From the NCBI RefSeq assembly GCF_054482525.1, contig NZ_CM137006.1: a stretch of DNA of 64,000 nucleotides; one strand, 5' to 3'. The notes under the pieces are model-generated. The model did no database searches and was not told the DNA's origin. It worked only from the letters and a program-made list of their open reading frames with translations. Position 1 is the stretch's first letter; every line of letters starts with the position of its first letter. Positions 3,324 to 27,777 of the stretch are shown here, piece after piece. Made by a program: the position numbers and the translations under genes.

Positions 3324-4133
3324 CTAGTCCGTCACTGTTAATGTGCTATCTGGCTCTGAAAATATTAGCTCATTTAATTTTTGCATGTCATTAGATGAAC
3401 CAGTTATACAACCCTCGGAACAGAATCGAGGTCCTAAAGATGGACCAAAAGCGTTTAAACAACTATGTGTTAAAAATCCATCACGATTATACGTTTCTGT
3501 ATTTGCTGACGGTACTAAACGTATACCATTAGGTTTTCTATTAGTTGCTCCAGGACCATTAACATTCCAGCTCCATACCCCTGGAGGTATTGGGCCTCTA
3601 TTTTGTAAGTGTGTACAACCAGGATTATTTTTACATTGCATATTATTACCATTATTACCAGAGGCGACTGAAATAGTAAGCACACCATAAGAATTATCAT
3701 CACTTGGCGTATCTGAAACGCATGAAAGCATACCTAAAGTTATGCTGTATAAACAGGTCGCTAATCCCAACGGGTCAATATCAGTTATCGGATTCAACGG
3801 ATACTGATAAAAATTCCATCCCCCCTTCAGTCCAATCGGATCCTGAGTGATATACCGCCCCTGCAGCTGGTGCGGGTTCTCTTCATTCAGCAGGTTGCCC
3901 CACTCATCGTATTCTGCGCACCATTCTGTTGCCCCTTCCGTGCTGATAAGCACCAGCGGCAGGCCGCGATGGTCGCAGTGGTACAGGTGGATTTTTCGCG
4001 CCGGCGTGTACACCGGGTCCATCTGGTTTTGCATCTGCGCCACCGTCAGGCCGCACGATGCCAGCCAGCGTCGGCTTTCCTCACTCACCCGGTCAGCCAG
4101 GATTTCACTTTCCAGCCGGTCGAGCATCTGCAC
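3324..4133 (-). CDS. Orphan Rhs C-terminal fragment (core end plus divergent toxin tip); no own ATG start
   Basis: Translation [29 protein letters not shown]...[18 protein letters not shown] is near-identical to the rhsA core end in this window, then diverges after the DPxGL motif into a unique Cys-rich tip; ORF-track start is a GTG that is an internal Val codon in rhsA. Confidence 0.7.
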
Positions 4134-6333: not shown

Positions 6334-6559
6334 ATAACCATCTTCTAAGTCTTCATTATCATAAAAATTCCATTCTGTTGTACCATAGGCTATCCTTGAG
6401 ATTAAATTAACCTGAATTCTAATTTGTTTACTCCATAAATCAAATTCAATTTTTTATTGCTCGATCACCAAGATATATTCTATCAAACATATTACCCCCC
6501 TATTCTAAAAATACTCAGGCATTCCGCACATTATATCAGCCTCATCTTGATTGCTTCCC

Positions 6560-6840
6560 GTTTCCCAATACGGCGGCGCGGGGAGTCATAAAGGTAAGAA
6601 ATTTCCAGCAGTACGGCGTCCTATTGTTCACGGCGGTAATGCACCAGCCAGTATTGGCTATCGTAGTGATAACCGTGTAACCTGCCGCCGCATCGCGTAT
6701 CTAATGTTCATTCTTTTCCATAAACCGTCCGTACACATTGTGATAGTAAAAATACAATACATCTTCGCTGATGCGGTTATTCTGCTGCATGTGGGAAGCG
6801 CCGAATACTGCTCCCGGTATGGCCAGTAATTACTATTTAG
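6560..6840 (-). pseudogene. Decayed coding remnant (possible orphan toxin-tip fragment)
   Basis: GC-richer patch in AT-rich DNA; minus-strand frames give protein-like stretches (LAIPGAVFGASHMQQNNRISEDVLYFYYHNVYGRFMEKNEH*, AGYTVITTIANTGWCITAVNNRTPYCWKF...) broken by stops; ORF-track 67-aa and 92-aa ORFs overlap here. Confidence 0.3.
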
Positions 6841-6993
6841 TACGACGTTAGGGGGAGTCACTTAATCTCACAGATACTTCAAGTAACAGATGAAAATCGC
6901 TCCTGAAATGAAAAAGAAATTTTTTTGAATGTGTTCCTGTCAAATCAAGTGGTTTTTTCGTCGATATGTAGAGTCATATTGTACACAAAATAG

Positions 6994-17849: not shown

Positions 17850-17971
17850 TAGTTATCTCTGTAATCCTTGCCCGTAAATTCGTGATAGCCGTCGTAAAGC
17901 TATCACCAGTTGGCGAAGATTTCGCCAGCCACGTCTACCCTTGTTATACCTCACACCGCAAGGAGACGATC

Positions 17972-19510
17972 ATGACCAATAATCCCCCTTCAGCACAGAT
18001 TAAGCCCGGCGAGTATGGTTTTCCTCTTAAGTTAAAAGCCCGTTATGACAACTTTATCGGCGGCGAGTGGGTAGCCCCTGCCGACGGCGAGTATTACCAG
18101 AACCTGACGCCGGTGACCGGGCAGCTGCTGTGCGAAGTGGCGTCTTCGGGCAAACGAGACATCGATCTGGCGCTGGATGCTGCGCACAAAGTGAAAGATA
18201 AATGGGCGCATACTTCGGTGCAGGATCGCGCGGCGATTCTGTTTAAGATCGCCGATCGGATGGAGCAGAACCTCGAACTGTTAGCGACCGCTGAAACCTG
18301 GGATAACGGCAAACCCATTCGCGAAACCAGTGCTGCCGATGTGCCGCTGGCGATTGACCATTTCCGCTATTTCGCCTCGTGTATTCGGGCGCAGGAAGGC
18401 GGTATTAGTGAAGTGGATAGCGAAACCGTGGCTTATCACTTCCACGAACCGTTAGGCGTGGTGGGGCAGATTATTCCGTGGAACTTCCCGCTGCTGATGG
18501 CGAGCTGGAAAATGGCCCCCGCGCTGGCGGCGGGCAACTGTGTGGTGCTGAAACCCGCACGTCTTACCCCGCTTTCTGTACTGCTGCTAATGGAAATCGT
18601 CGGTGATTTACTGCCGCCAGGCGTGGTGAACGTGGTCAACGGTGCAGGTGGGGAAATTGGCGAATATCTGGCGACCTCGAAACGCATCGCTAAAGTGGCG
18701 TTTACCGGCTCAACGGAAGTGGGCCAACAAATTATGCAATACGCTACGCAAAACATTATTCCGGTAACCCTGGAGCTGGGCGGCAAATCGCCAAATATCT
18801 TCTTTGCTGATGTGATGGATGAAGAAGATGCCTTTTTCGATAAAGCGCTGGAAGGCTTTGCACTGTTTGCCTTTAACCAGGGCGAAGTTTGCACCTGTCC
18901 AAGCCGTGCTTTAGTACAGGAGTCTATCTACGAACGCTTTATGGAACGCGCCATCCGCCGTGTCGAAAGCATTCGTAGCGGTAACCCACTCGACAGCGTG
19001 ACGCAAATGGGTGCGCAGGTATCTCACGGGCAACTGGAAACCATCCTCAATTACATTGATATCGGCAAAAAAGAGGGCGCAGACGTGCTCACCGGCGGGC
19101 GGCGCAAGCTGCTGGAAGGCGAACTGAAAGACGGCTACTACCTTGAACCGACTATTTTGTTTGGTCAGAACAATATGCGGGTGTTCCAGGAGGAGATATT
19201 TGGCCCGGTGCTGGCGGTGACCACCTTCAAAACGATGGAAGAAGCGCTGGAGCTGGCGAACGATACGCAATATGGCCTGGGCGCGGGCGTCTGGAGCCGC
19301 AACGGTAATCTGGCCTATAAGATGGGGCGCGGCATTCAGGCTGGGCGCGTGTGGACCAACTGTTATCACGCTTACCCGGCACATGCGGCGTTTGGCGGCT
19401 ACAAACAGTCGGGCATCGGACGCGAAACCCATAAGATGATGCTTGAGCATTACCAGCAAACCAAGTGCCTGCTGGTGAGCTACTCGGATAAACCGTTGGG
19501 GCTGTTCTGA
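17972..19510 (+). CDS. aldB: NAD(P)-dependent aldehyde dehydrogenase B
   Basis: Translation from ATG at 17972 ([33 protein letters not shown]...) gives 512 aa with ALDH motifs (ELGGKSP, catalytic Cys region); the 30 upstream codons of the ORF track are an extension. Confidence 0.93.
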
Positions 19511-19516
19511 TGTGAA

Positions 19517-19552
19517 AGGCAGGCAACGTTAATAGTTGTCTGCCTTTGTTTT
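19517..19552 (+). terminator. Rho-independent terminator after aldB, shared with the convergent gene
   Basis: Stem aggcaggcaac / gttgtctgcct (one mismatch) with gttaata loop followed by ttgtttt; the stop of the minus-strand 359-aa gene lies in the T-run. Confidence 0.6.
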
Positions 19553-20630
19553 AGTTGTATAAAGCGGCAGTCGCTTTTAACTCATCGCTGAAAGAATAAA
19601 TATCATCGAGAGATTCAATAGGATGGCGGGTTTCGTTTTTCTCTAAGTCAAATAAACCAATATATTTTTGATTTCGATTGAAATGTAATCTACAGAGTGG
19701 TTTTCGATTATTGTCATCTACAAGTATACCAAAATAGCTTTTTGTATCTCTGTGGACTATTCGTGGTGCATCAAGCACTACGCGGACTATAGCTTTAACA
19801 ATATGAAATCCTTCAAGTTCCTCCATAGTAGTGGCAATATCGGTTTCTTCTTTATTAATACATTCTACTTCCTCATTGTGTGAATTCGAATCAATTACAG
19901 ATAATGACCCACCACCTATTGCCGATTTCAATCTTTCGTTTATTTGAGAGCCAATATATTGATTGGCAGCTTTCTTTGTTAATTTTGCAAACGTATCTTT
20001 TACCTTTTGTGTTAACATACCTTCATAAATTCTTGCTGCAAAGAATTTTACAAAATCCTCTTCAGGATTATTCATTTGTGCATGGAGAACTTTTTTAATT
20101 AAACTAACATATTTTAATTCACCTGCAGCATTAATTATTGATTCCAAATCAAATGCTGATTTAGTAAGCTTTTTTATCTCGGGAACAACTGTTTCGTCTA
20201 AGTCAAGTAGATCTATCTCAAGAAATGGTTTTTCATCCATTTTATTAGGTGCTTCTAAATCAGTAAAAAATTTATAAACTTGTCCATTGGTTAGAATAGA
20301 TATTCTTGCATTTGTTACATGAAAGTATCGAAAAAGCTGTGAAGCATGATTTATATTTAGAGGATCACCAATTTTTTTGCATTCAATGAGAATCTGAACC
20401 TCGCTATTTTTTAAGATTGCATAGTCAATCTTTTCACCTTTCTTCGTTCCAATATCGCATACAAACTCTGGGATAACTTCGGTAGGATCAAAGACATCAT
20501 AACCTAACACATTGTTAATGAACGGCATTACGAAAGCATTTTTGGTAGCTTCCTCCGTTTCAATGACTCCGGCTTGTTGTTTTATTTTTGCGGATAATGA
20601 ATTCAGCTTATCTATAAACTCCATAGACAT
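19551..20630 (-). CDS. Uncharacterised 359-aa protein with N-terminal PD-(D/E)xK (HsdR-N-like) nuclease-fold domain; candidate defence gene
   Basis: ATG with AAGGAG RBS; N-terminal ~120 aa contain PEF...KIDYAIL...ILIECKK (E-D-ExK arrangement typical of HsdR N-terminal/Mrr-like nuclease domains); helical middle; unassigned C-terminal region VVLDAPRIVHRDTKSYFGILVDDNNRKPLCRLHFNRN; visibly AT-rich gene. Confidence 0.75.
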   Translation of the reverse strand: MSMEFIDKLNSLSAKIKQQAGVIETEEATKNAFVMPFINNVLGYDVFDPTEVIPEFVCDIGTKKGEKIDYAILKNSEVQILIECKKIGDPLNINHASQLFRYFHVTNARISILTNGQVYKFFTDLEAPNKMDEKPFLEIDLLDLDETVVPEIKKLTKSAFDLESIINAAGELKYVSLIKKVLHAQMNNPEEDFVKFFAARIYEGMLTQKVKDTFAKLTKKAANQYIGSQINERLKSAIGGGSLSVIDSNSHNEEVECINKEETDIATTMEELEGFHIVKAIVRVVLDAPRIVHRDTKSYFGILVDDNNRKPLCRLHFNRNQKYIGLFDLEKNETRHPIESLDDIYSFSDELKATAALYN

Positions 20631-21072
20631 TATAACTCCTTTTATATATATTTAATAAAAATGCGTTTGATAAAAATATAGAAAATATTTATATATTAAC
20701 GCCTTATCATTGGTCATAGTTAATGTATAACACACAAAAAATAATGTTTGCACATTGTAAATACAATGGTGAAACAAACTTGATATTTATCAAGAAAATA
20801 AAACAATGTCTTTTATTGGTTGTTTTAAACGTCCAATGAATACGAGTTGGAGCTATAGCAAGACTAGCTTCGATATCGCATGGATAATCTAATACAGATT
20901 TTTTAACACCTAATACTATGAGTTATATGTAAATTGCGAGCATCCTCGCATCTTTTCAACAAGTTACTGCACACCGTTATTCTCCTTCCGAGCGAGTCAA
21001 CTTTATCCCCCTGACGGCCCATATAAATCGCGCTATCGTGATTGTTATCGCTAATTGTGTGTGTATCGTGTG

Positions 21073-21078
21073 TATAAT
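21073..21078 (+). promoter_or_regulatory. Candidate -10 hexamer (TATAAT) for hicAB
   Basis: Perfect TATAAT 18 nt upstream of the hicA start, followed by GGAAGGG RBS-like sequence; no convincing -35 identified. Confidence 0.3.
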
Positions 21079-21095
21079 CATGGAAGGGCAGGGAT

Positions 21096-21281
21096 GTGAA
21101 AAGTGCAGACGTGATCGCTATCCTGAAGCAGCATGGCTGGGAACATATTCGAACCCGTGGCAGTCATCATCAGTTCCGCCACCCTGTTCATCCGGGTCTG
21201 GTGACGGTTCCGCACCCTAAAAAAGATATTAAGCCCGGTACGCTGGCGCAAATTGGGCGTCAGGCTGGTTTAACATTTTAA
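21096..21281 (+). CDS. hicA: HicA-family mRNA interferase toxin
   Basis: 61-aa ORF (GTG start) with GSHHQFRHP...HPKKDIKPGTLAQIGRQAGL, the HicA/YcfA-like signature; followed by hicB. Confidence 0.8.
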   Translation: MKSADVIAILKQHGWEHIRTRGSHHQFRHPVHPGLVTVPHPKKDIKPGTLAQIGRQAGLTF

Positions 21282-21297
21282 AATTTCAGGAGGCAAT

Positions 21298-21708
21298 ATG
21301 TTTTATCCCGCCTATATCCACAGTGATCCTGACGGCAGCGCCAGCGGTTTTTTCCCTGATGTTCCAGGCTGTTATTTTGCTGGTGATACGCTGGACAACG
21401 CTTTCCAGGATGCGCGAAGTGCACTTGTCGCGCACTTCGAAACCTTATGCGAGATGAATGAAGAGTTGCCGCTTCCAGGCTCTGTGGAAACACATCTGGT
21501 CCAGCGTGCGCAGGACTTTATTGGCGGGCAATGGTTGCTGGTGGATATCAATATGAATCAGTTCGAAGGTCGGGCTGAACGTATCAATATTACGATGCCG
21601 AAAAGATTACTGAACAAGATTGATACCTACGTGCGCAATAACCCAGACTACGCCAACAGAAGTGCGTTTCTGGCGGAAGCTGCCCGGCGTGTATTGCCGG
21701 GCGCTTAA
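21298..21708 (+). CDS. hicB: HicB-family antitoxin with C-terminal DNA-binding region
   Basis: 136-aa ORF 17 bp downstream of hicA; N-terminal HicB-like fold sequence and C-terminal RHH-like segment (ITMPKRLLNKIDTYV...AFLAEAARRVL). Confidence 0.8.
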   Translation: MFYPAYIHSDPDGSASGFFPDVPGCYFAGDTLDNAFQDARSALVAHFETLCEMNEELPLPGSVETHLVQRAQDFIGGQWLLVDINMNQFEGRAERINITMPKRLLNKIDTYVRNNPDYANRSAFLAEAARRVLPGA

Positions 21709-21779
21709 TCCCGCGTTTCGATGGTTGGCGGGCAACCGCACCGATATGTTGATACTGATAAGACGCGTTAAGCGTCGCA

Positions 21780-23744
21780 TCATGCGCTGGTTTCCTCATT
21801 CACCCAGATCCGCATTTCGCCTTCACCCCGGTTAGCCCAGCTAAACCACGGGATAAATGTCAGAGTTTGCGGCTGGCGTTTGGCTGGGGCATAGTCGTAA
21901 TGCCACAGCGGTTGCTGCTCTGGATTGCTCTGTTCATACCGGTAACCCGGTGCCTGGATTAAGATCTTATGGCGGAACAATCCTTTGCCTTCAAATGTCG
22001 TAAATGGCGCATCGGCGGGCAGCCACAGGTTATGCAGTGACTCGCCGTTGTCGGCCTGTTCCAGGCAATACACCAGCGGGCCGCGCTGAATCGCCACTTT
22101 TCCGGCGACGTGACGCACCAGCGGGTTACCGTAAACGCGACGTACCGGCATTGGCAAAGTCAGATTCAGCGTGTCACCCTCCTGCCATTCGCGGGTAATG
22201 TGCAAATACCCTTTACGAATATCCTGCTCGACCTCTTCCCCATTCAATATGATCTGCGGCTGTGTGCACCAGTCCGGCAGACGTAAAGCCAGCGTATGAC
22301 GTACCGGCTGGGGCGATTCGACCGCAATCGTCACCTGCTCCTGCCACGGATAGTTCCCGCTAACCCGCAGGCGCAACGTGCCATTTTCTACCGGCACTTC
22401 CATGCTGTTTCCTGCGTAGATGTTGATATACAACGCATCTTCACGCGGCGTGTAGAGATAATGACCAATCGAGGTCAGCACGCGGGCGATATTTGGCGGA
22501 CAACAAGCGCAGCCAAACCAACGCTGGCGGATCGGTTTAACGTGATCGTAGATATGGTTGAATTTCAGCGATTTTGGATGTACTTCCAGCGGATTCACAT
22601 AGAAGAAATGTTTGCCATCCAGTGCCATGCCGCCGAGCACAGTGTTGTACAGCGCGCGCTCCATCACATCGGCATATTGACTGTCGCCTTCCATTTCCAG
22701 CATTCGCCGGGCGAACATCATCAGGCCGATGGAAGCACAGCTTTCGGCGTATACCGTGTCATTCGGCAGATCGTAATCGCTGCTGAACGCTTCGCCGCTG
22801 CTTTGTGAGCCAATGCCGCCGGTAATATATAACTGACGCTGGGCCATATTGTTCCACAGCCGCAGGCAATCCTGACGCTTGCTTTCATCGTGACTTAAAC
22901 GCGCCAGATGTGCGACGCCAGTCATCAGATATACAAAGCGTACTGCATGTCCGATGGCGGTTTGTTGCTGTGCGATGGGCAAATGCGCCTGGCTGTAGGC
23001 TTTATCTTTCACCATCCACGCCGGGCCGTAGGTGTGCCAGTGCGAGGTCTGCCCGCGCTTTTCATATTCCTGGTCGTAATAGTGCGGTTGCGCACCACGC
23101 TGTTCGACAAAATAGTTCGTCAGCGCCAGGTAGCGCGGCTCTTCGGTCACTTCATACAGGCGCATTAGTGCCAGTTCAATTTCCGGGTGACCAGGATAAC
23201 CGTGTAACTTACTTTCACCTGGACCAAATACGCTGTCGATATGATCGGCCAGACGGCAAACCACTTCCAGCAAGCGCCGCTTGCCCGTGGCCTGGAAGAA
23301 GGCGACTCCGGCTTCAATCAGATGACCGGCGCAGTAAAGTTCATGACACTCTGCCAGATTGCTCCAGCGTTCTTCGGGTGCTTTTACCGTAAAGTAAGTA
23401 TTGAGATAGCCATCTTCGCACTGGGCGGAAGCGACCAGTTCGATTACCTCGTCGGCGGTTTTTTCCAGTTCGGCGTCCGGCTTCTGGCACAGCGACCAGG
23501 CTACCGCTTCCAGCCATTTGGCGACGTCGCTGTCCTGAAACACCATCCCGTAAAATTCACCCTCCTGAAGTCCGGCGGCAATGCGAAAGTTTTCAATCGC
23601 ATGGCTGGGTTCCGCTTCTGGGATACGATCGTTCAAGGCATCCCACTGATAAGGAATCACCACGTCGCGGACCAGTTGTTGGTACTGACCGAGGAACGGA
23701 TCGCTGACCGTCAGTTTATGCAGATCGACTTCCGAAATGTTCAT
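21780..23744 (-). CDS. Glycoside hydrolase family 127 (DUF1680, beta-L-arabinofuranosidase-like) protein
   Basis: 654-aa translation from ATG at 23744 (MNISEVDLHKL...) with perfect AAGGAG RBS; Cys-rich C-terminal CACCPPN motif and overall similarity pattern to HypBA1-type enzymes as recalled; ORF-track 670-aa version is an extension. Confidence 0.75.
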   Translation of the reverse strand: MNISEVDLHKLTVSDPFLGQYQQLVRDVVIPYQWDALNDRIPEAEPSHAIENFRIAAGLQEGEFYGMVFQDSDVAKWLEAVAWSLCQKPDAELEKTADEVIELVASAQCEDGYLNTYFTVKAPEERWSNLAECHELYCAGHLIEAGVAFFQATGKRRLLEVVCRLADHIDSVFGPGESKLHGYPGHPEIELALMRLYEVTEEPRYLALTNYFVEQRGAQPHYYDQEYEKRGQTSHWHTYGPAWMVKDKAYSQAHLPIAQQQTAIGHAVRFVYLMTGVAHLARLSHDESKRQDCLRLWNNMAQRQLYITGGIGSQSSGEAFSSDYDLPNDTVYAESCASIGLMMFARRMLEMEGDSQYADVMERALYNTVLGGMALDGKHFFYVNPLEVHPKSLKFNHIYDHVKPIRQRWFGCACCPPNIARVLTSIGHYLYTPREDALYINIYAGNSMEVPVENGTLRLRVSGNYPWQEQVTIAVESPQPVRHTLALRLPDWCTQPQIILNGEEVEQDIRKGYLHITREWQEGDTLNLTLPMPVRRVYGNPLVRHVAGKVAIQRGPLVYCLEQADNGESLHNLWLPADAPFTTFEGKGLFRHKILIQAPGYRYEQSNPEQQPLWHYDYAPAKRQPQTLTFIPWFSWANRGEGEMRIWVNEETSA

Positions 23745-23754
23745 CTTGTGCTCC

Positions 23755-25155
23755 TTAAGGCTGTACATGACGCTGACGCAGGTCGCTAGCAATGCGTGAC
23801 ATCATAGGGTTATTGAGTTTGCAAAAGCGGATCGCCCCTGCCAGCAGCAGGTGGAATAGCGCAGGCAGTAATGTTTCCATCGCCGCGATGCCGCCAAGCG
23901 AACTGGCGGTCTGGTTTTCCACGCCAGGCTGGTAGGCGACAAAAATAAACAGCAGGCTGATGATCCCGGCGCTGGAGGCCCAGGCCAGTTTGATGAAAAA
24001 CAGATTGAAGGCGAAGTTCATGCCGGAAGAACGTACGCGGGTTTTCCACTCGCCGTAGTCATCGGCAAAGGCCATCAATGAGAAGTGCAGTGGCAATGTG
24101 AAGCCAAGAATCACGCCATTACCGAGGATCACCGCCAGCCACAGCGTTTGATAAGCCGGGCCGGAGGGCAGGAACCACATCAACACCGCCAGTGAAGCGA
24201 GGAGCAGGTTGGTGTAGTAATAAATTTTGACGGTATCGAAACGTCGCGTTAACGGGCTGACAATCACCGAGCCGATAATGGAGGCGAAGGTGACCATAGT
24301 GAAGAACAGCGACGTGTAGCCCGTACTGCCTTGTAAGACGTAGGTAATAAAGTACATATACCCACCGCCGCGAATATTAAAGACGTTAATCAGCAGGAAA
24401 GACATGACCAGCATCAGCAGCAGTTGGTCGTTGTTCCGCAGCCCGGCAAGATGTTCGCGCAGGGTAAATTTCCCCATTGTGGAGAGCGGCACCCGTTCAC
24501 GAACCCAGAAGAAACAGCACAGTAACATCACCACGGCAATGGCGCACAATACGCCGACGCCCAGTTGATAGCCGCGCGCGGCATTACCCTGACCGAAGAG
24601 ATCTACCATCCACGGTAAGCCTACCGAAACCAGAAATCCCGCCACGCCGCAGAGAACGAATCGCCAGGACTGGCAGGAGATCACTTCATTGTGGCGGGTG
24701 GTCATGGTGTTGATCAGCGCGCAGTACGGCACGTTGATGGCGGTATAACCGACTGAAAGGAGCAGGTAAGTGCCGAACGCCCAGGCGATTTTTACTCCCA
24801 TGCTGGCATCTGGCACGGTGAACGTCAGGATGCCGATAATGCCGATGGGAATGGCAATCCACAACTGCCACGGACGAAAGCGCCCCCAGCGACTTTGCGT
24901 CCGGTCGGCAATGACGCCCATCACCGGGTCGGAGATGGCATCAAACACGCGCAGTGCAATAAACAGCGTGCCGACCAGCGCCGGAGTTAAGCCAAAAACG
25001 TCGGTGTAGAAAAAGGTGAGAAAGTTCATGATCAGGCAAGTTATTACGGTGCCGCCTGCGTCACCCAGGCCGTAGCCTATTTTTTCCCGTACAGATAACG
25101 CATCGTCAATTTTACCTTTAGCGATATCAGCGGTAGTAATCGGTGTAGAGGTCAT
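23755..25155 (-). CDS. GPH-family (glycoside-pentoside-hexuronide:cation) symporter
   Basis: 466-aa ORF with 12 predicted hydrophobic segments and MelB/YicJ-like N-terminus ([10 protein letters not shown]...[21 protein letters not shown]). Confidence 0.8.
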
Positions 25156-25380
25156 AGATATTCCTCGTGAATAGGGAGCAATTTTTAGTTTTATTGCAAT
25201 GACCTGATTAATTCTGCCGTGAACGGGAATATCAACAAGGCGAGAAAAGAGTAAAAAAAGGTGACGATTCCGACCTGAATTTAAAAGTGTGAAATGGATC
25301 AGGTGAAATTAATGTTTTTGATTAATAATCAAAAGGTAATGTGTTTAATCATTAATGAATAAGCGGGAAATTACATATCA

Positions 25381-26196
25381 ATGCTCGAATTATCCATGAC
25401 GTTACCGATTAAAGTGCAAAATGGTGGATTATTTATTTCCCGTGGCGTAGGGAGGCATCCGGCAAGGCGGCTGGAGTCATGGGAAATTATCTTTGTCGAA
25501 AAAGGTCGATTAGCGATTCAGGAAGAAGAGCGGATATTTCTGGTCGATGCGGGAGAGAGTTTATTACTCTGGCCGAACCGACAGCATGTTGGGGTAGAGG
25601 ATTTTCCCGCTGATCTCAAATTTTACTGGCTGCATTTTGAGGTTAAAGCGCCGGACAACGACCCGCGCTGGCTCACTCATCTTAGCGTGCCGCAACAAAC
25701 AAAGGTTGCCGATCCGCAGGCGTTGGTGGTCCTGTTTCGCCAGTTCTTAAGCGAACAGGAAAAGCATCAACGCACTCCGGCGCTGGAGTTTATTGTGCTG
25801 CTGATTTTGCAGCAACTCACCCGTGACGCGCGTCTTGATGAACAGGCCGATGCCGCAGGTACCACGCTTGCCTGGAAAGCGCAGAAACTGATCCGCACGC
25901 AATATCATCGCCCGCTTTCTACGGCGCTTTTAGCCCGCGAGCTGTACTGCAATGCCGATTATCTTGGGCGTGTCTATCGGCGGGTGTTTCATCTGACGTT
26001 AACAGAAGCAATTCATCGCCAGCGAGTGCGCGAAGCCGAAAAGCTGTTAATTAGCGAAGCGCGATCGCTCACTGAAGTGGCGGCGTTGTGCGGGTTTAAT
26101 GACGTTGGCTATTTCCGGCAGATTTTTCGCAAACACACCGGTTTAACGCCAGCTGCGTGGAAGCGACGTTACAGCAAGGAACATATCAATTCGTAG
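25381..26196 (+). CDS. AraC/XylS-family transcriptional regulator
   Basis: 271-aa ORF with C-terminal AraC-type HTH signature (LTEVAALCGFNDVGYFRQIFRKHTGLTPAAWKRR); divergent from the transporter gene. Confidence 0.8.
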   Translation: MLELSMTLPIKVQNGGLFISRGVGRHPARRLESWEIIFVEKGRLAIQEEERIFLVDAGESLLLWPNRQHVGVEDFPADLKFYWLHFEVKAPDNDPRWLTHLSVPQQTKVADPQALVVLFRQFLSEQEKHQRTPALEFIVLLILQQLTRDARLDEQADAAGTTLAWKAQKLIRTQYHRPLSTALLARELYCNADYLGRVYRRVFHLTLTEAIHRQRVREAEKLLISEARSLTEVAALCGFNDVGYFRQIFRKHTGLTPAAWKRRYSKEHINS

Positions 26197-26227
26197 TGCC
26201 GGGGCGATGAAGCCCCGGCGTGAGGGA

Positions 26228-26923
26228 TTACTGCCCGTAATAGGCATTGGCCCCATGTTTACGCAGGTAGTGCTTATCCAGCAGTTCGTTTTGCATGGCA
26301 GGGAGCTGCGGCGCAAGCTGGCGCGAGAACAGGCCCATATAGGCGCACTCTTCCAGCACCACGGCATTATGCACCGCATCGGCGGCGTTTTTACCCCAGG
26401 CGAACGGGCCGTGAGAATGCACCAGTACCGCCGGGATTTGCGCCGGACTCCTGCCGCGTTCTTCGAAAGTTTCAATGATCACTTCGCCGGTCTGGTATTC
26501 ATACTCGCCGTTGATCTCCTCTGCGGTCATCTGTCGCGTGCAGGGGATTGCGCCATAGAAATAATCGGCGTGCGTGGTGCCCCAGGCAGGGAGATCCAGC
26601 CCGGCCTGTGACCAGATGGTGGCGTGGCGCGAGTGGGTATGCACAATGCCACCGATTTCGGCATAGCGACGGTAAAGCGCCAGATGCGTTGGCGTATCGG
26701 ACGAGGGCTTTTTGCTACCTTCCACCACCTTGCCGCTGGCTATCTCAACCACCACCATATCGTCGGCGGTCATCACGTCGTACTCGACGCCGGAAGGTTT
26801 GATTACCATCCATTGCCGCGTTTCGTCTATCGCGCTGACATTGCCCCAGGTGAACGTCACCAGATGGTGAGCGGGAAGCGCCAGATTCGCCGCCAGCATG
26901 TCGGCTTTCAGTTGCTCTAACAT
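26228..26923 (-). CDS. sgbE: L-ribulose-5-phosphate 4-epimerase
   Basis: 231-aa ORF; class II aldolase/epimerase motifs; matches recalled SgbE. Confidence 0.92.
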
Positions 26924-27777
26924 ATAAATCCAGCCTCCTGCATACGCGCTTCAATCCAGCGCCGCGCCTGAATAATCTCCAGCACCGGCTCTTTGGCTTT
27001 TTCGGTCCACATCTCAATCAGGAAAGAACCGCGATAGTTCAGTTCATGCAGCGTTTTGAAGATGCCAACGAAATCGACGCAGCCTTCGCCAAACGGCACA
27101 TCACGGAACTGTCCGGGATTTTGCCCGGTGACTGGCAGGGTGTCTTTCAGATGGATTGCGGCAATACGGTCAATGCCCAGTTTCAGTTCGGCGGGAACAT
27201 CATTGCCCCAGGCGCTGAGGTTGCCGACGTCCGGGTAGACGGTGAACCACGGCGAGGCGAGCATCTCGTCCCACTTTTTCCATTTGCTGATGGAGTTCAT
27301 AAACGCGGTATCCATAATCTCCACCGCCAGCATTACTTGTGATGCCGCCGCCTGTTCGACCGCCCACGCCAGCCCTTCAGCAAAACGTTGCTGGGTGCCT
27401 TCGTCGTGGTCTTCGTAATAGACGTCATAACCCGCCAGTTGAATGGTGCGAATGCCGAGATCGCGCGCCAGGCGAATCGCTTTACTCATGATTTCCCGCG
27501 CCCGTTCGCGCACCGCCTTGTCCCGGCTGCCAAAGGGAAAGCGACGATGTGCGGACAGGCACATTGACGGAATGGCAACACCCGTTTCGATCATCGCGGC
27601 AACCAGCGAAGTCCTTTGTGCGGCGCTCCAGTCAAGACGTGAGAGCCGTTCGTCGGTTTCATCCACCGACATTTCGACAAAATCAAAGCCACAGCTTTTT
27701 GCCAGCACCAGCCGCTCCGGCCAGGAGAGATCTTTCGCCAGCGCTTTTTCATAAATCCCTAACGGATGATTACGCAC
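26917..27777 (-). CDS. sgbU: L-xylulose-5-phosphate 3-epimerase
   Basis: Translation from GTG at 27777 ([23 protein letters not shown]...) gives 286 aa as recalled for SgbU; start choice uncertain, ORF track extends to 27867. Confidence 0.88.

Follow-up and report, generated by a model that had tools for sequence, protein, structure and literature searches.

A probable functional hicAB operon with a ribbon-helix-helix antitoxin between aldB and a GH127 gene in Escherichia coli

Known HicAB systems and the pair beside aldB

Classical hicAB operons whose antitoxin carries a ribbon-helix-helix (RHH) domain form Class 4 of Gerdes 2024 (PMC10865869), a class that has been characterised structurally and functionally in Burkholderia and Yersinia. 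In the Burkholderia pseudomallei system (6g26, 6g1n, and 4c26), HicB covers His24 of HicA, and an excess of HicA frees HicB from the operator (PMC11594946 and PMC8138530). The Yersinia pestis HicA3-HicB3 pair (4p78 and 4p7d) likewise has an RHH-type HicB, for which two operators are described, the main one overlapping the -10 element; the roles of Gly22 and His24 in HicA (His28 in Y. pestis HicA3) are set out in the same source (PMC11594946). E. coli K-12 carries a hicAB pair (b4532/b1438; 6hpb) that is transcribed from a CRP-S-dependent promoter, P1, and a HicB-repressed promoter, P2, beside the hicA start (PMC6957337 and PMC8138530).

The window, that is, the whole 64-kb stretch of DNA analysed, was identical to E. 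coli PCN033 where the two were compared, over 2.5 kb. Between aldB and a GH127 gene it contains the following pair, as defined from the ORF listing and the sequence.

21096-21281, plus strand: hicA, GTG start, 61 aa, beginning MKSADVIAILKQHGWEHIRTRGSHHQFRHP and ending KDIKPGTLAQIGRQAGLTF
21298-21708, plus strand: hicB, ATG start, 136 aa
HicB residues 1 to about 85: N-terminal partial RNase H-like domain
HicB residues about 94-133: C-terminal RHH domain

The pair is already named in RefSeq, where the proteins at the same coordinates on E. coli PCN033 are listed as a HicA family toxin (WP_000833473.1) and a HicB family antitoxin (WP_000499743.1). A literature search for this specific pair found no paper, the sole trace being a Xanthomonas study in which WP_000833473.1 served as a BLAST query. 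With its bicistronic operon, partial RNase H-like N-domain, C-terminal RHH domain, and short spacer, the pair is an ordinary representative of Gerdes Class 4; no difference from that class was found, and it was typical in every feature tested. We give a probability of roughly 85% to the reading that the locus is a functional chromosomal type II toxin-antitoxin (TA) operon of this classical, RHH-type kind.

The original prediction had described a HicA-signature ORF of 61 aa, followed 17 bp later by a HicB-like ORF with an RHH-like C-terminal segment, and had held that the HicA sequence differs from that of K-12. The two ORFs and their family assignments were borne out by the comparisons given below. 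hicB does lie downstream of hicA, on a common strand, but the spacer is 16 nt (21282-21297) rather than 17 bp; this arrangement was kept in all orthologues compared.

The system of B. pseudomallei shares the hicA-then-hicB order. Over 58 aligned columns its HicA shows 52% identity and shares the GSHH motif and catalytic His24, and its HicB aligns over the full length, including the RHH domain, with 35 to 36% identity. By analogy, the same mechanism would be expected for the pair described here. The two systems differ in host family and in the RHH strand, which reads ERINVSIP in B. pseudomallei and ERINITMP here. The HicB3 protein of Y. pestis also aligns over the full length, whereas similarity between the HicA proteins is weaker (E 1e-4) and 174 bp lie between hicA3 and hicB3 (PMC11594946), compared with the 16 nt found here. 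The K-12 pair belongs to the same family, has the same gene order, and encodes a HicA of similar fold (TM-score 0.77 to 0.81), but is located at yncJ-ydcR rather than aldB-GH127. Pairwise comparison of the HicA sequences gave a similarity near noise (E 0.011), and the alignable part of the HicB proteins was limited to the N-terminal residues 1 to 66, with 33% identity, so that the claimed difference from K-12 HicA was upheld. The C-terminal halves of the two HicB proteins are unrelated: that of K-12 is a helix-turn-helix (HTH) of the Xre type and not an RHH domain. The C-terminal Xre-type HTH of HTH-class HicB proteins (Gerdes Class 3) was not found in the HicB of the window.

The HicA and HicB proteins

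Assignment to the HicA family was based on a profile score above the curated threshold, a length of 50 to 100 aa, an alpha-beta-beta-beta-alpha dsRBD-like (double-stranded-RNA-binding-domain) fold, and a catalytic His with a preceding Gly. HicA matched Pfam profile PF07927 with 82.7 bits (gathering score 27) over profile positions 2 to 58 of 58. Its AF2 model (pLDDT 94.2) contains the elements H3-12, E16-21, E24-28, E35-38, and H47-57, which give the dsRBD-like fold, and Foldseek aligned it with 6g26_F at a TM-score of 0.89 and an rmsd of 1.0 A. The closest PDB relatives were the HicA proteins of 4c26 and 6g26 (E about 1e-16). Residues G22-S23-H24-H25 pair with GS(A)HH of 4c26, His24 standing opposite the mutated A24 of this H24A mutant. 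In an alignment of 19 HicA sequences, G22 was invariant and S23 nearly so, and H24 was present in all close orthologues but that of lineage L017, which has Pro at this position.

HicB matched PF15919 with 123.3 bits (gathering score 27), its residues 3 to 129 covering profile positions 1 to 123 of 123. Against PDB sequences it aligned with 6g1n (E 3e-25, residues 2 to 133) and 4p78 (E 2e-21), both RHH-type antitoxins, and these full-length alignments take in the segment ERINITMPKRLLNKIDTYV...NRSAFLAEAARRVL. The AF2 model (pLDDT 88.8) has an N-domain made up of E2-9, E15-18, E26-29, H32-52, H63-73, and E78-83, which matched 6g1c, a structure of a HicB N-domain, with a target-normalised TM-score of 0.84 to 0.86 and an rmsd of about 2 A. 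Foldseek returned full-length matches to 6g26_A and 4p7d_A, and a match to K-12 6hpb_B over the N-domain only (88 columns). At the C terminus, the model shows an extended segment (residues 94 to 101) followed by helices at 102 to 114 and 121 to 132; that the RHH strand is not formed in this monomer model is expected, since the domain folds on dimerisation. A search of NCBIfam found a specific model for none of HicA, HicB, and the nuclease encoded next to them.

On the basis of these relationships, HicA is predicted to be a small, ribosome-independent, mRNA-cleaving toxin of dsRBD fold whose activity would need His24 and Gly22. The N-terminal domain of HicB would bind HicA and mask the catalytic His, thereby neutralising it. 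A HicB tetramer would also repress the operon, with its C-terminal RHH domains placed on GTGTAT repeats in the promoter region, and surplus HicA would be expected to free HicB from the DNA.

Promoter region and candidate regulatory sites

The following features were located upstream of and within the operon.

20935-20950, no strand: perfect CRP-S-type palindrome TGCGA-gcatcc-TCGCA (TGCGAgcatccTCGCA), 161 bp upstream of the hicA start
21030-21042, plus strand: box 1, GCGCTAnnGTGAT, candidate second HicB site and/or upstream-promoter -10 (TAtcGT, 21034-21039)
21061-21078, plus strand: box 2, GTGTAT-cg-TGTGTATAAT, candidate HicB operator from phylogenetic footprinting
21073-21078, plus strand: TATAAT, -10 hexamer, identical in 16 of 20 compared sequences upstream of hicA
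21084-21088, plus strand: AAGGG, weak Shine-Dalgarno-like sequence of hicA, 7 nt before the GTG
21288-21293, plus strand: AGGAGG, strong Shine-Dalgarno sequence of hicB, 4 nt before the ATG and inside the spacer

The TATAAT hexamer that had been noted just upstream of the pair is thus present and conserved, and it lies within an 18-nt box that occurs only once in the 64-kb window. A sigma-70 consensus scan called no promoter at this hexamer because an acceptable -35 element is absent; the promoter is assigned from conservation and not from the scan. The two sites that the scan did call were both within an AT-rich insert, and shuffled sequences gave more.

Box 2, in its general form GTGTAT-NN-TGTGTATAAT, is near-invariant across genera and overlaps the -10 element; it contains two GTGTAT half-sites in direct orientation, 9 bp apart. 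Box 1 was also conserved in a footprint of 16 upstream regions, and box 2 repeats it in direct orientation 30 bp away. The box 2 motif is also found beside the -10 of more remote hicAB loci, in identical form in Janthinobacterium (TATCGTGTGTATAAT) and as GTGTGTATAATACACAC in Massilia, and where distant loci (Pasteurellaceae and Oxalobacteraceae) have the GTGTAT motif at the -10, the invariant RHH strand ERINIT is preserved in their HicB. These patterns suggest that box 2 is probably the HicB operator, bound at the -10, with box 1 as a possible further site 30 bp upstream. Such a layout would match the two operators of Y. pestis HicB3, although those are 15-bp inverted repeats and the half-sites here are direct. 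A search of the promoter region for conserved inverted repeats as an RHH operator found none, and it was the direct GTGTAT repeats that were conserved instead.

Transcription from the TATAAT promoter would be predicted to begin at the AAGGG sequence, the AAGG block of which is conserved in orthologues. As its start would then fall within the hicA Shine-Dalgarno sequence, this short mRNA would probably yield mainly HicB. Translation in general may be biased toward the antitoxin, since hicA combines a GTG start with a weak Shine-Dalgarno sequence and hicB an ATG start with AGGAGG. A search of Rfam over positions 19400 to 21900 gave one sub-threshold chance match (TeloSII_ncR30, 20.8 bits against a threshold of 86), and folding of the spacer between hicB and GH127 revealed no unusual structure (z = -0.37).

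The CRP-S core motif has been defined as a 22-bp CRP-type site with a TGCGA core and C at position 6 (PMC1635313), and the palindrome at 20935-20950 places such a TGCGA core upstream of the promoter. Exact TGCGA-N6-TCGCA occurs once in the window, compared with 0.17 expected occurrences. Its position is kept in other genera (exact or 9/10), and at least 8 of the 10 bases were matched in 11 of 20 upstream regions, compared with 8% of shuffles; in most E. coli carriers, the left half reads TACGA. From the centre of the site to TATAAT the distance is 130 bp in E. coli and, for most of the other genera, 139 to 142 bp (eight of them have 140), a 10-bp difference that hints at kept helical phasing, depending on the assumed -10. 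Serratia and Phytobacter have a different, second site, 98 and 87 bp from TATAAT, respectively. The palindrome is accordingly a candidate site for CRP, with or without Sxy, at an upstream promoter P1. Full-length mRNA may then be made from this second promoter, and the pair may follow the P1/P2 logic of K-12 hicAB. Dependence on Sxy is uncertain because one fully symmetric site with two TGCGA halves is reported to have been active whether or not Sxy was present (PMC6728893). When the 230 bp upstream of K-12 hicA were inspected by eye, no CRP-S core with correct spacing was seen. The scan used for sigma-70 promoters also called the palindrome as a weak terminator-like hairpin; a role as a mere terminator was ranked lower, as the changes found in other genera (TGCGA..CCGCA and TACGA..CTGCA) do not preserve pairing.

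Synteny, the adjoining nuclease gene, and rival readings

The genes flanking the pair are selAB, yiaY, aldB, GH127, an MFS transporter gene, an AraC regulator gene, and sgb genes. The order aldB-hicAB-GH127 is conserved in about ten enterobacterial genera, among them Enterobacter, Citrobacter, Yokenella, Lelliottia, Trabulsiella, and Pseudocitrobacter. Among the 5,426 E. coli genomes, the pair was found in 505, or 9% of the complete ones, compared with 4,253 for the K-12-type hicAB. Where it is missing, a part of hicB often remains.

21625-21735, plus strand: hicB 3' end and the spacer after it, the part still present as a relic in K-12-like E. coli genomes, as seen on alignment with A1_181 and MG1655

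K-12 MG1655 has this unannotated relic of about 110 bp at the same site, a 49-bp core of it (query positions 530 to 578) is present in about 3,400 E. coli genomes without the pair, and a relic also occupies the same site in Escherichia whittamii. The locus had been called a non-K-12 location; as the relic shows, K-12 formerly had the pair here and has lost it.

It had further been proposed that the pair is a separately acquired paralogue of K-12 hicAB. A recent, separate horizontal transfer could account for a HicB of another class than that of K-12, for the low frequency in complete E. coli genomes, and for a position downstream of aldB that is a variable spot. We nevertheless regard it as very improbable, given that synteny extends over about ten genera, that the divergence of hicAB is comparable to that of GH127 and matches the flanking genes, that its GC content (48 to 50%) is host-like, and that relics lie at the same site. 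No close copy of the pair was found on a plasmid, the two matches of 98% identity being 4.9-Mb chromosomes filed as plasmids. The pair is thus an old resident of the site, and most E. coli, K-12 among them, have lost it. Its dispensability, with which this loss is consistent, would also suit an inert or domesticated remnant, in which HicA is non-toxic and HicB is kept as a transcription factor or as an "anti-addiction" antitoxin. Chromosomal TA pairs are frequently silent in phenotype. In several related lineages the toxin gene is indeed inactivated beside an intact hicB, through an internal deletion (L009), a frameshift (L008), a truncation (L016), or the H24P substitution (L017), but decay of HicA ahead of hicB is also the pattern expected if HicA is toxic. 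The hicA of the window is intact, with Gly22 and His24 present, and its confident model superposes closely on an active-type HicA. Across genera, pN/pS was 0.196 for hicA, the same as for hicB (0.19), and 0.157 for the adjoining GH127 gene, indicating purifying selection; pS was 0.6 to 0.9 between genera, so that dS is saturated and these ratios are usable but dated divergences are not. An inert remnant is therefore unlikely in the window, and a functional TA operon is preferred.

The position of the TA genes next to a nuclease gene had been taken to reinforce an interpretation as a defence islet.

19551-20630, minus strand: gene for a nuclease with an HSDR_N domain

That hicAB and this nuclease act together as a phage-defence unit, or that the locus is a hotspot of defence genes, would agree with the frequency of HicA genes in defence islands (PMC10865869). 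A nuclease of 76 to 77% identity is also encoded beside the pair in Trabulsiella, two Enterobacter genomes, and Lelliottia, where its gene occupies the opposite side, between hicB and GH127. More distant homologues lie near defence-like genes in Variovorax (AAA ATPase and UvrD helicase) and Kocuria (DUF4041 and RES proteins), but in Duffyella and Diaphorobacter the homologue is solitary amid metabolic genes, and hicAB was beside the homologue in none of the four distant contexts examined. Only 189 of the 505 E. coli genomes carrying hicAB have the nuclease gene, and in the majority of genera hicAB occurs without it. The insert has a GC content of 26 to 35%, well below that of hicAB, and the nuclease gene entered later, as an AT-rich insertion. 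In PADLOC-DB 2.0, neither HicA nor HicB had a match, and the nuclease gave only a weak, partial N-terminal match, to a type IIG enzyme (26.6 bits). The flanking genes are metabolic, and other cargo at the same spot (yiaU- and yiaT-like genes and efflux pump genes) is of a housekeeping type. A defence role shared with the nuclease thus has little probability, and the islet interpretation is weak.

TA pairs are usually viewed as mobile. The analysis adds a TA pair that has kept a single chromosomal location in different enterobacterial genera while under purifying selection, its loss from most E. coli with an unannotated relic left in K-12, an operator prediction (GTGTAT half-sites over the -10) common to homologues in other orders, and a testable hint of CRP/Sxy control, as for K-12 hicAB; none of these alters the kind of system. 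A more tentative proposal, which we think possible but rather doubtful, is that an ancient, vertically inherited RHH-class hicAB independently reached the two-promoter wiring of the K-12 pair, which is of an unrelated class. An upstream CRP-S/Sxy promoter, belonging to the competence regulon, would then serve toxin and antitoxin together, and a HicB-repressed promoter starting in the hicA Shine-Dalgarno sequence would serve the antitoxin only. If this were true, two HicAB classes in one species would share a physiological signal, which would speak for a conserved function of HicA in the cell when conditions induce cAMP/Sxy, as opposed to one that is only selfish or defensive.

The hicAB pair and its class

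The ORF list and the sequence confirmed a 61-aa ORF followed by a 136-aa ORF, together with the peptide motifs and the TATAAT hexamer quoted in the original prediction; the gap between the genes, given there as 17 bp, is a spacer of 16 nt.

21073-21078, TATAAT hexamer upstream of hicA
21096-21281, + strand, hicA, 61 aa, GTG start
21288-21293, AGGAGG, Shine-Dalgarno sequence of hicB, within the 16-nt hicA-hicB spacer, 4 nt ahead of the ATG
21298-21708, + strand, hicB, 136 aa, ATG start

Both proteins scored far above the Pfam cut-offs of 27 bits (HicA, 82.7 bits against HicA_toxin; HicB, 123.3 bits against HicB_lk_antitox, with the whole profile covered), bearing out the proposed family identity. 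The nearest solved structure to HicA is that of Burkholderia pseudomallei HicA (4c26/6g26; E about 1e-16), while those nearest to HicB are B. pseudomallei HicB (6g1n; E 3e-25; residues 2-133) and Yersinia pestis HicB3 (4p78; E 2e-21). Both HicB alignments extend through the C-terminal segment (ERINITMPKRLLNKIDTYV...NRSAFLAEAARRVL), in agreement with its description as ribbon-helix-helix (RHH)-like. Confident AlphaFold2 models were obtained for HicA (pLDDT 94.2; alpha-beta-beta-beta-alpha fold) and HicB (pLDDT 88.8), and using Foldseek, HicA was superimposed on 6g26_F with a TM-score of 0.89 and an rmsd of 1.0 A. Toxicity of B. pseudomallei HicA requires Gly22 and His24, the latter equivalent to the catalytic His28 of Y. 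pestis HicA3 (PMC11594946), and sequence alignments revealed that both residues are kept here. Taken together, the profile and structure matches, the models and these residues place the pair in Class 4 of Gerdes, that of classical hicAB operons whose HicB is of the RHH type (PMC10865869).

In contrast, HicA of K-12 shows hardly any sequence similarity (pairwise E 0.011), and K-12 HicB is 33% identical within the first 66 residues, with no similarity beyond them. Full-length Foldseek alignments of HicB were obtained only with RHH-type HicBs, whereas K-12 HicB (6hpb_B) matched in the N-domain only. The two pairs belong to different HicB classes, and the claim that they are dissimilar is correct.

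Escherichia coli PCN033 is 100% identical over the 2.5-kb stretch compared (19400-21900). In RefSeq its proteins are annotated as "type II toxin-antitoxin system HicA family toxin" (WP_000833473.1) and "HicB family antitoxin" (WP_000499743.1), flanked by a "type I restriction endonuclease" gene adjoining aldB on one side and a GH127 glycoside hydrolase gene on the other. A literature search for this particular pair found no paper, its sole trace being use as a BLAST query. In the spacer where hicB and GH127 converge, a REP-like palindrome (TGATAAGACGCGTTAAGCGTCGCATCA; about 21756-21782) overlaps the GH127 stop codon; the folded spacer was not of exceptional stability (z = -0.37).

Distribution, history and the adjoining nuclease gene

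The whole pair was present in 505 of 5426 complete E. coli genomes, chromosomal in every case. About 3400 more carried only a fragment of the hicB 3' end (49-bp core, 98-100% identity), and about 1500 had neither. Alignments of K-12-like genomes, including MG1655, placed REP sequences after aldB, then a relic of approximately 110 bp and yiaW; the relic matches 21625-21735 (hicB 3' end and downstream spacer) with a 12-bp deletion. The MG1655 relic site (6430-6973 of its comparison locus, L006; minus strand, aldB-yiaW intergenic) has no annotation, and the relic is common also to BL21 and NEB10-beta among the approximately 3400 complete genomes. In ST131-like genomes, aldB is followed by REP sequences and GH127, and hicAB is absent. 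The K-12-type hicAB was complete in 4253 genomes.

When one genome per species was scanned, orthologs (HicB, 69 to 86% identity; HicA, 56 to 83%) were identified between aldB and GH127 in Enterobacter, Citrobacter, Yokenella, Lelliottia, Trabulsiella and Pseudocitrobacter, and the GH127 side of this arrangement was seen in Pluralibacter and Phytobacter ursingii. Relics were also found in Escherichia whittamii and one other Escherichia species. Median pN/pS against E. coli was 0.196 for hicA, 0.19 for hicB, 0.157 for GH127 and 0.054 for aldB; the GC content of hicAB (48 to 50%) is host-like, and no close copy was identified on any plasmid in the collection searched. Synteny, selection, GC content, lack of plasmid copies and relics together mark the aldB-linked pair as an old resident, maintained vertically but with repeated losses. 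Recent acquisition, including the proposed origin as a separately acquired paralog, was rejected on synteny across genera, host-like GC and same-site relics. The location was described as non-K-12, which holds in that K-12 lacks the pair, but K-12 deleted it at this same site, where the relic remains.

The sole close "plasmid" matches to HicA and the nuclease (PLSDB NZ_CP134663.1 and NZ_CP141089.1) are 4.9-Mb E. coli records, evidently chromosomes. A 1.2-kb contig labeled "MAG: Collinsella sp." (L007; JAIJJM010000854.1) probably reached its bin as a contaminant, as the aldB-hicAB-GH127 proteins it encodes are 97 to 100% identical to their E. coli counterparts. Alternative forms exist downstream of aldB (about 17900-27000; loci L004 and L006): hicAB, GH127, an MFS transporter and an AraC regulator in the window, and yiaW-yiaV-yiaU-yiaT flanked by ysaC/ysaD and AraC-family gene fragments in K-12. 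Enterobacter and Lelliottia have yiaU-like and yiaT-like genes between aldB and hicA.

Damaged copies of hicA were found in four related loci: an internal deletion in an Enterobacter MAG (L009, 3927-3990), a frameshift within a run of A residues in Escherichia sp. E1V33 (L008, 169-350), a 5' truncation (L016, about 3903-3977) and replacement of the catalytic histidine (H24P) in E. chuandaensis (L017, 3801-3983). All four kept hicB, the promoter and the predicted operator box, the decay pattern that would be expected of an active toxin. Both genes have decayed in Lelliottia nimipressuralis (L031, 4001-4245).

The nuclease gene and its counterparts, which in four other enterobacterial genomes lie tail-to-tail with hicB, are as follows.

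19551-20630, - strand, nuclease gene, 359 aa, HSDR_N nuclease domain only
L011 4426-5502, counterpart
L017 4415-5488, counterpart
L021 4415-5488, counterpart
L016 4415-5443, counterpart

No family was matched by the C-terminal 200 aa or so. The gene sits in an insert of approximately 1.4 kb (26 to 35% GC) that, by alignment, stands in place of the REP-containing spacer from aldB to the hicA promoter region, and this insert was found in 189 E. coli genomes, at the same site upstream of hicA in all. It had been suggested that a toxin-antitoxin module beside a nuclease reinforces a defense islet. The association does recur on either side of hicAB, as a 76 to 77% identical gene lies between hicB and GH127 in Trabulsiella, two Enterobacter genomes and Lelliottia. 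However, most hicAB carriers are without the nuclease gene, none of its full-length homologs in four distant taxa adjoins hicAB, the homolog is solitary among metabolic genes in two of these four, the remaining cargo at this spot is of the housekeeping type, and PADLOC recognized no system. A functional link is thus unlikely, and we read the setting as an insertion-prone spot instead of a functional unit with hicAB.

Full-length nuclease homologs (45 to 68% identity) occur in Actinomycetota, Firmicutes, Rhizobium and Borrelia plasmids. A homolog adjoins an AAA ATPase and a UvrD-family helicase on a Variovorax plasmid (L037, 4884-8077), and DUF4041 and RES-domain proteins on a Kocuria plasmid (L036). 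Given these defense-like neighbors, the nuclease itself may be a stand-alone defense gene.

Promoter region and proposed regulation

The 200 bp 5' of hicA, aligned across 16 genomes, were mostly unalignable except for two blocks, boxes 1 and 2 in the list below.

20935-20950, perfect CRP-S core TGCGAgcatccTCGCA, upstream of the boxes, candidate site (core per PMC1635313)
21030-21042, box 1, GCGCTAnnGTGAT, 30 bp upstream of box 2, with a TA-nn-GTG core in common
21061-21078, box 2, GTGTAT-NN-TGTGTATAAT, near-invariant, includes TATAAT, occurs once in the window
21073-21096, hicA 5' layout: TATAAT (21073-21078), five bases, AAGGG (21084-21088), seven bases, GTG (21096)

Even homologs of 37 to 47% identity (Pasteurellaceae and Oxalobacteraceae) keep the RHH strand ERINIT unchanged, and the box 2 motif recurs at the -10 position of their promoters, as an identical 15-mer in Janthinobacterium (TATCGTGTGTATAAT), a palindrome in Massilia (GTGTGTATAATACACAC) and TTATAATACACAC in Avibacterium. 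We infer that HicB recognizes GTGTAT/ATACAC as its half-site and would repress by covering the -10, as Y. pestis HicB3 does at its BS2 site (PMC11594946). Given the TATAAT-AAGGG-GTG spacing, a transcript from this promoter would start at the hicA Shine-Dalgarno sequence or within it. It would probably translate hicB (AGGAGG) much better than hicA, paralleling the K-12 P2 transcript, which gives HicB only (PMC6957337, PMC8138530).

A perfect CRP-S core (Sxy-dependent CRP site type) occurs just once in the 64 kb, the expected number being 0.17. At the equivalent position, Lelliottia and Pseudocitrobacter have 10/10 matches, Trabulsiella, E. soli and two further E. coli-type contigs have 9/10 matches, and two more reach 8/10; in Serratia (10/10) and P. 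ursingii (8/10) the best match is a second site closer to hicA. Among shuffled upstream regions, 0.7% scored 9/10 or better and 8% scored 8/10 or better. The distance from site center to TATAAT is 130 bp in E. coli and 139 to 142 bp in most genera, a difference of one helical turn that hints that phasing matters. As K-12 hicAB P1 depends on CRP-S/Sxy (PMC11951105, PMC8138530), a comparable upstream promoter is plausible here; it is rated no higher because the palindrome also scores as a weak terminator and a fully symmetric TGCGA site was Sxy independent in a reporter (PMC6728893). Other genera carry a second conserved element, T[GT]CGA-N6-TTCC[ACT], approximately 45 to 50 bp downstream of the CRP-S-type site (about 20985-21005), perfect in Serratia silvae (TGCGAgcctctTCGCA); E. 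coli has a deletion of approximately 9 to 10 bp there, shortening the spacing by one helical turn.

The analysis directly established the gene structure of the pair, the family, fold and catalytic residues of its proteins, the conserved DNA boxes, and the selection, synteny and distribution of the genes. Beyond this, characterized homologs suggest how the pair may operate. HicA would cleave mRNA independently of the ribosome, the HicB N-domain would mask His24, and a HicB tetramer bound to both boxes through its RHH domains would repress transcription until dislodged by surplus HicA. The geometry would add two promoters, antitoxin-biased translation and CRP/Sxy input.

The identification is correct but routine, a known kind of system that is annotated already, and the evolutionary and defense interpretations first attached to it should be corrected. 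What the analysis adds is small and testable: the predicted operator, the relic in K-12 and the CRP-S lead.
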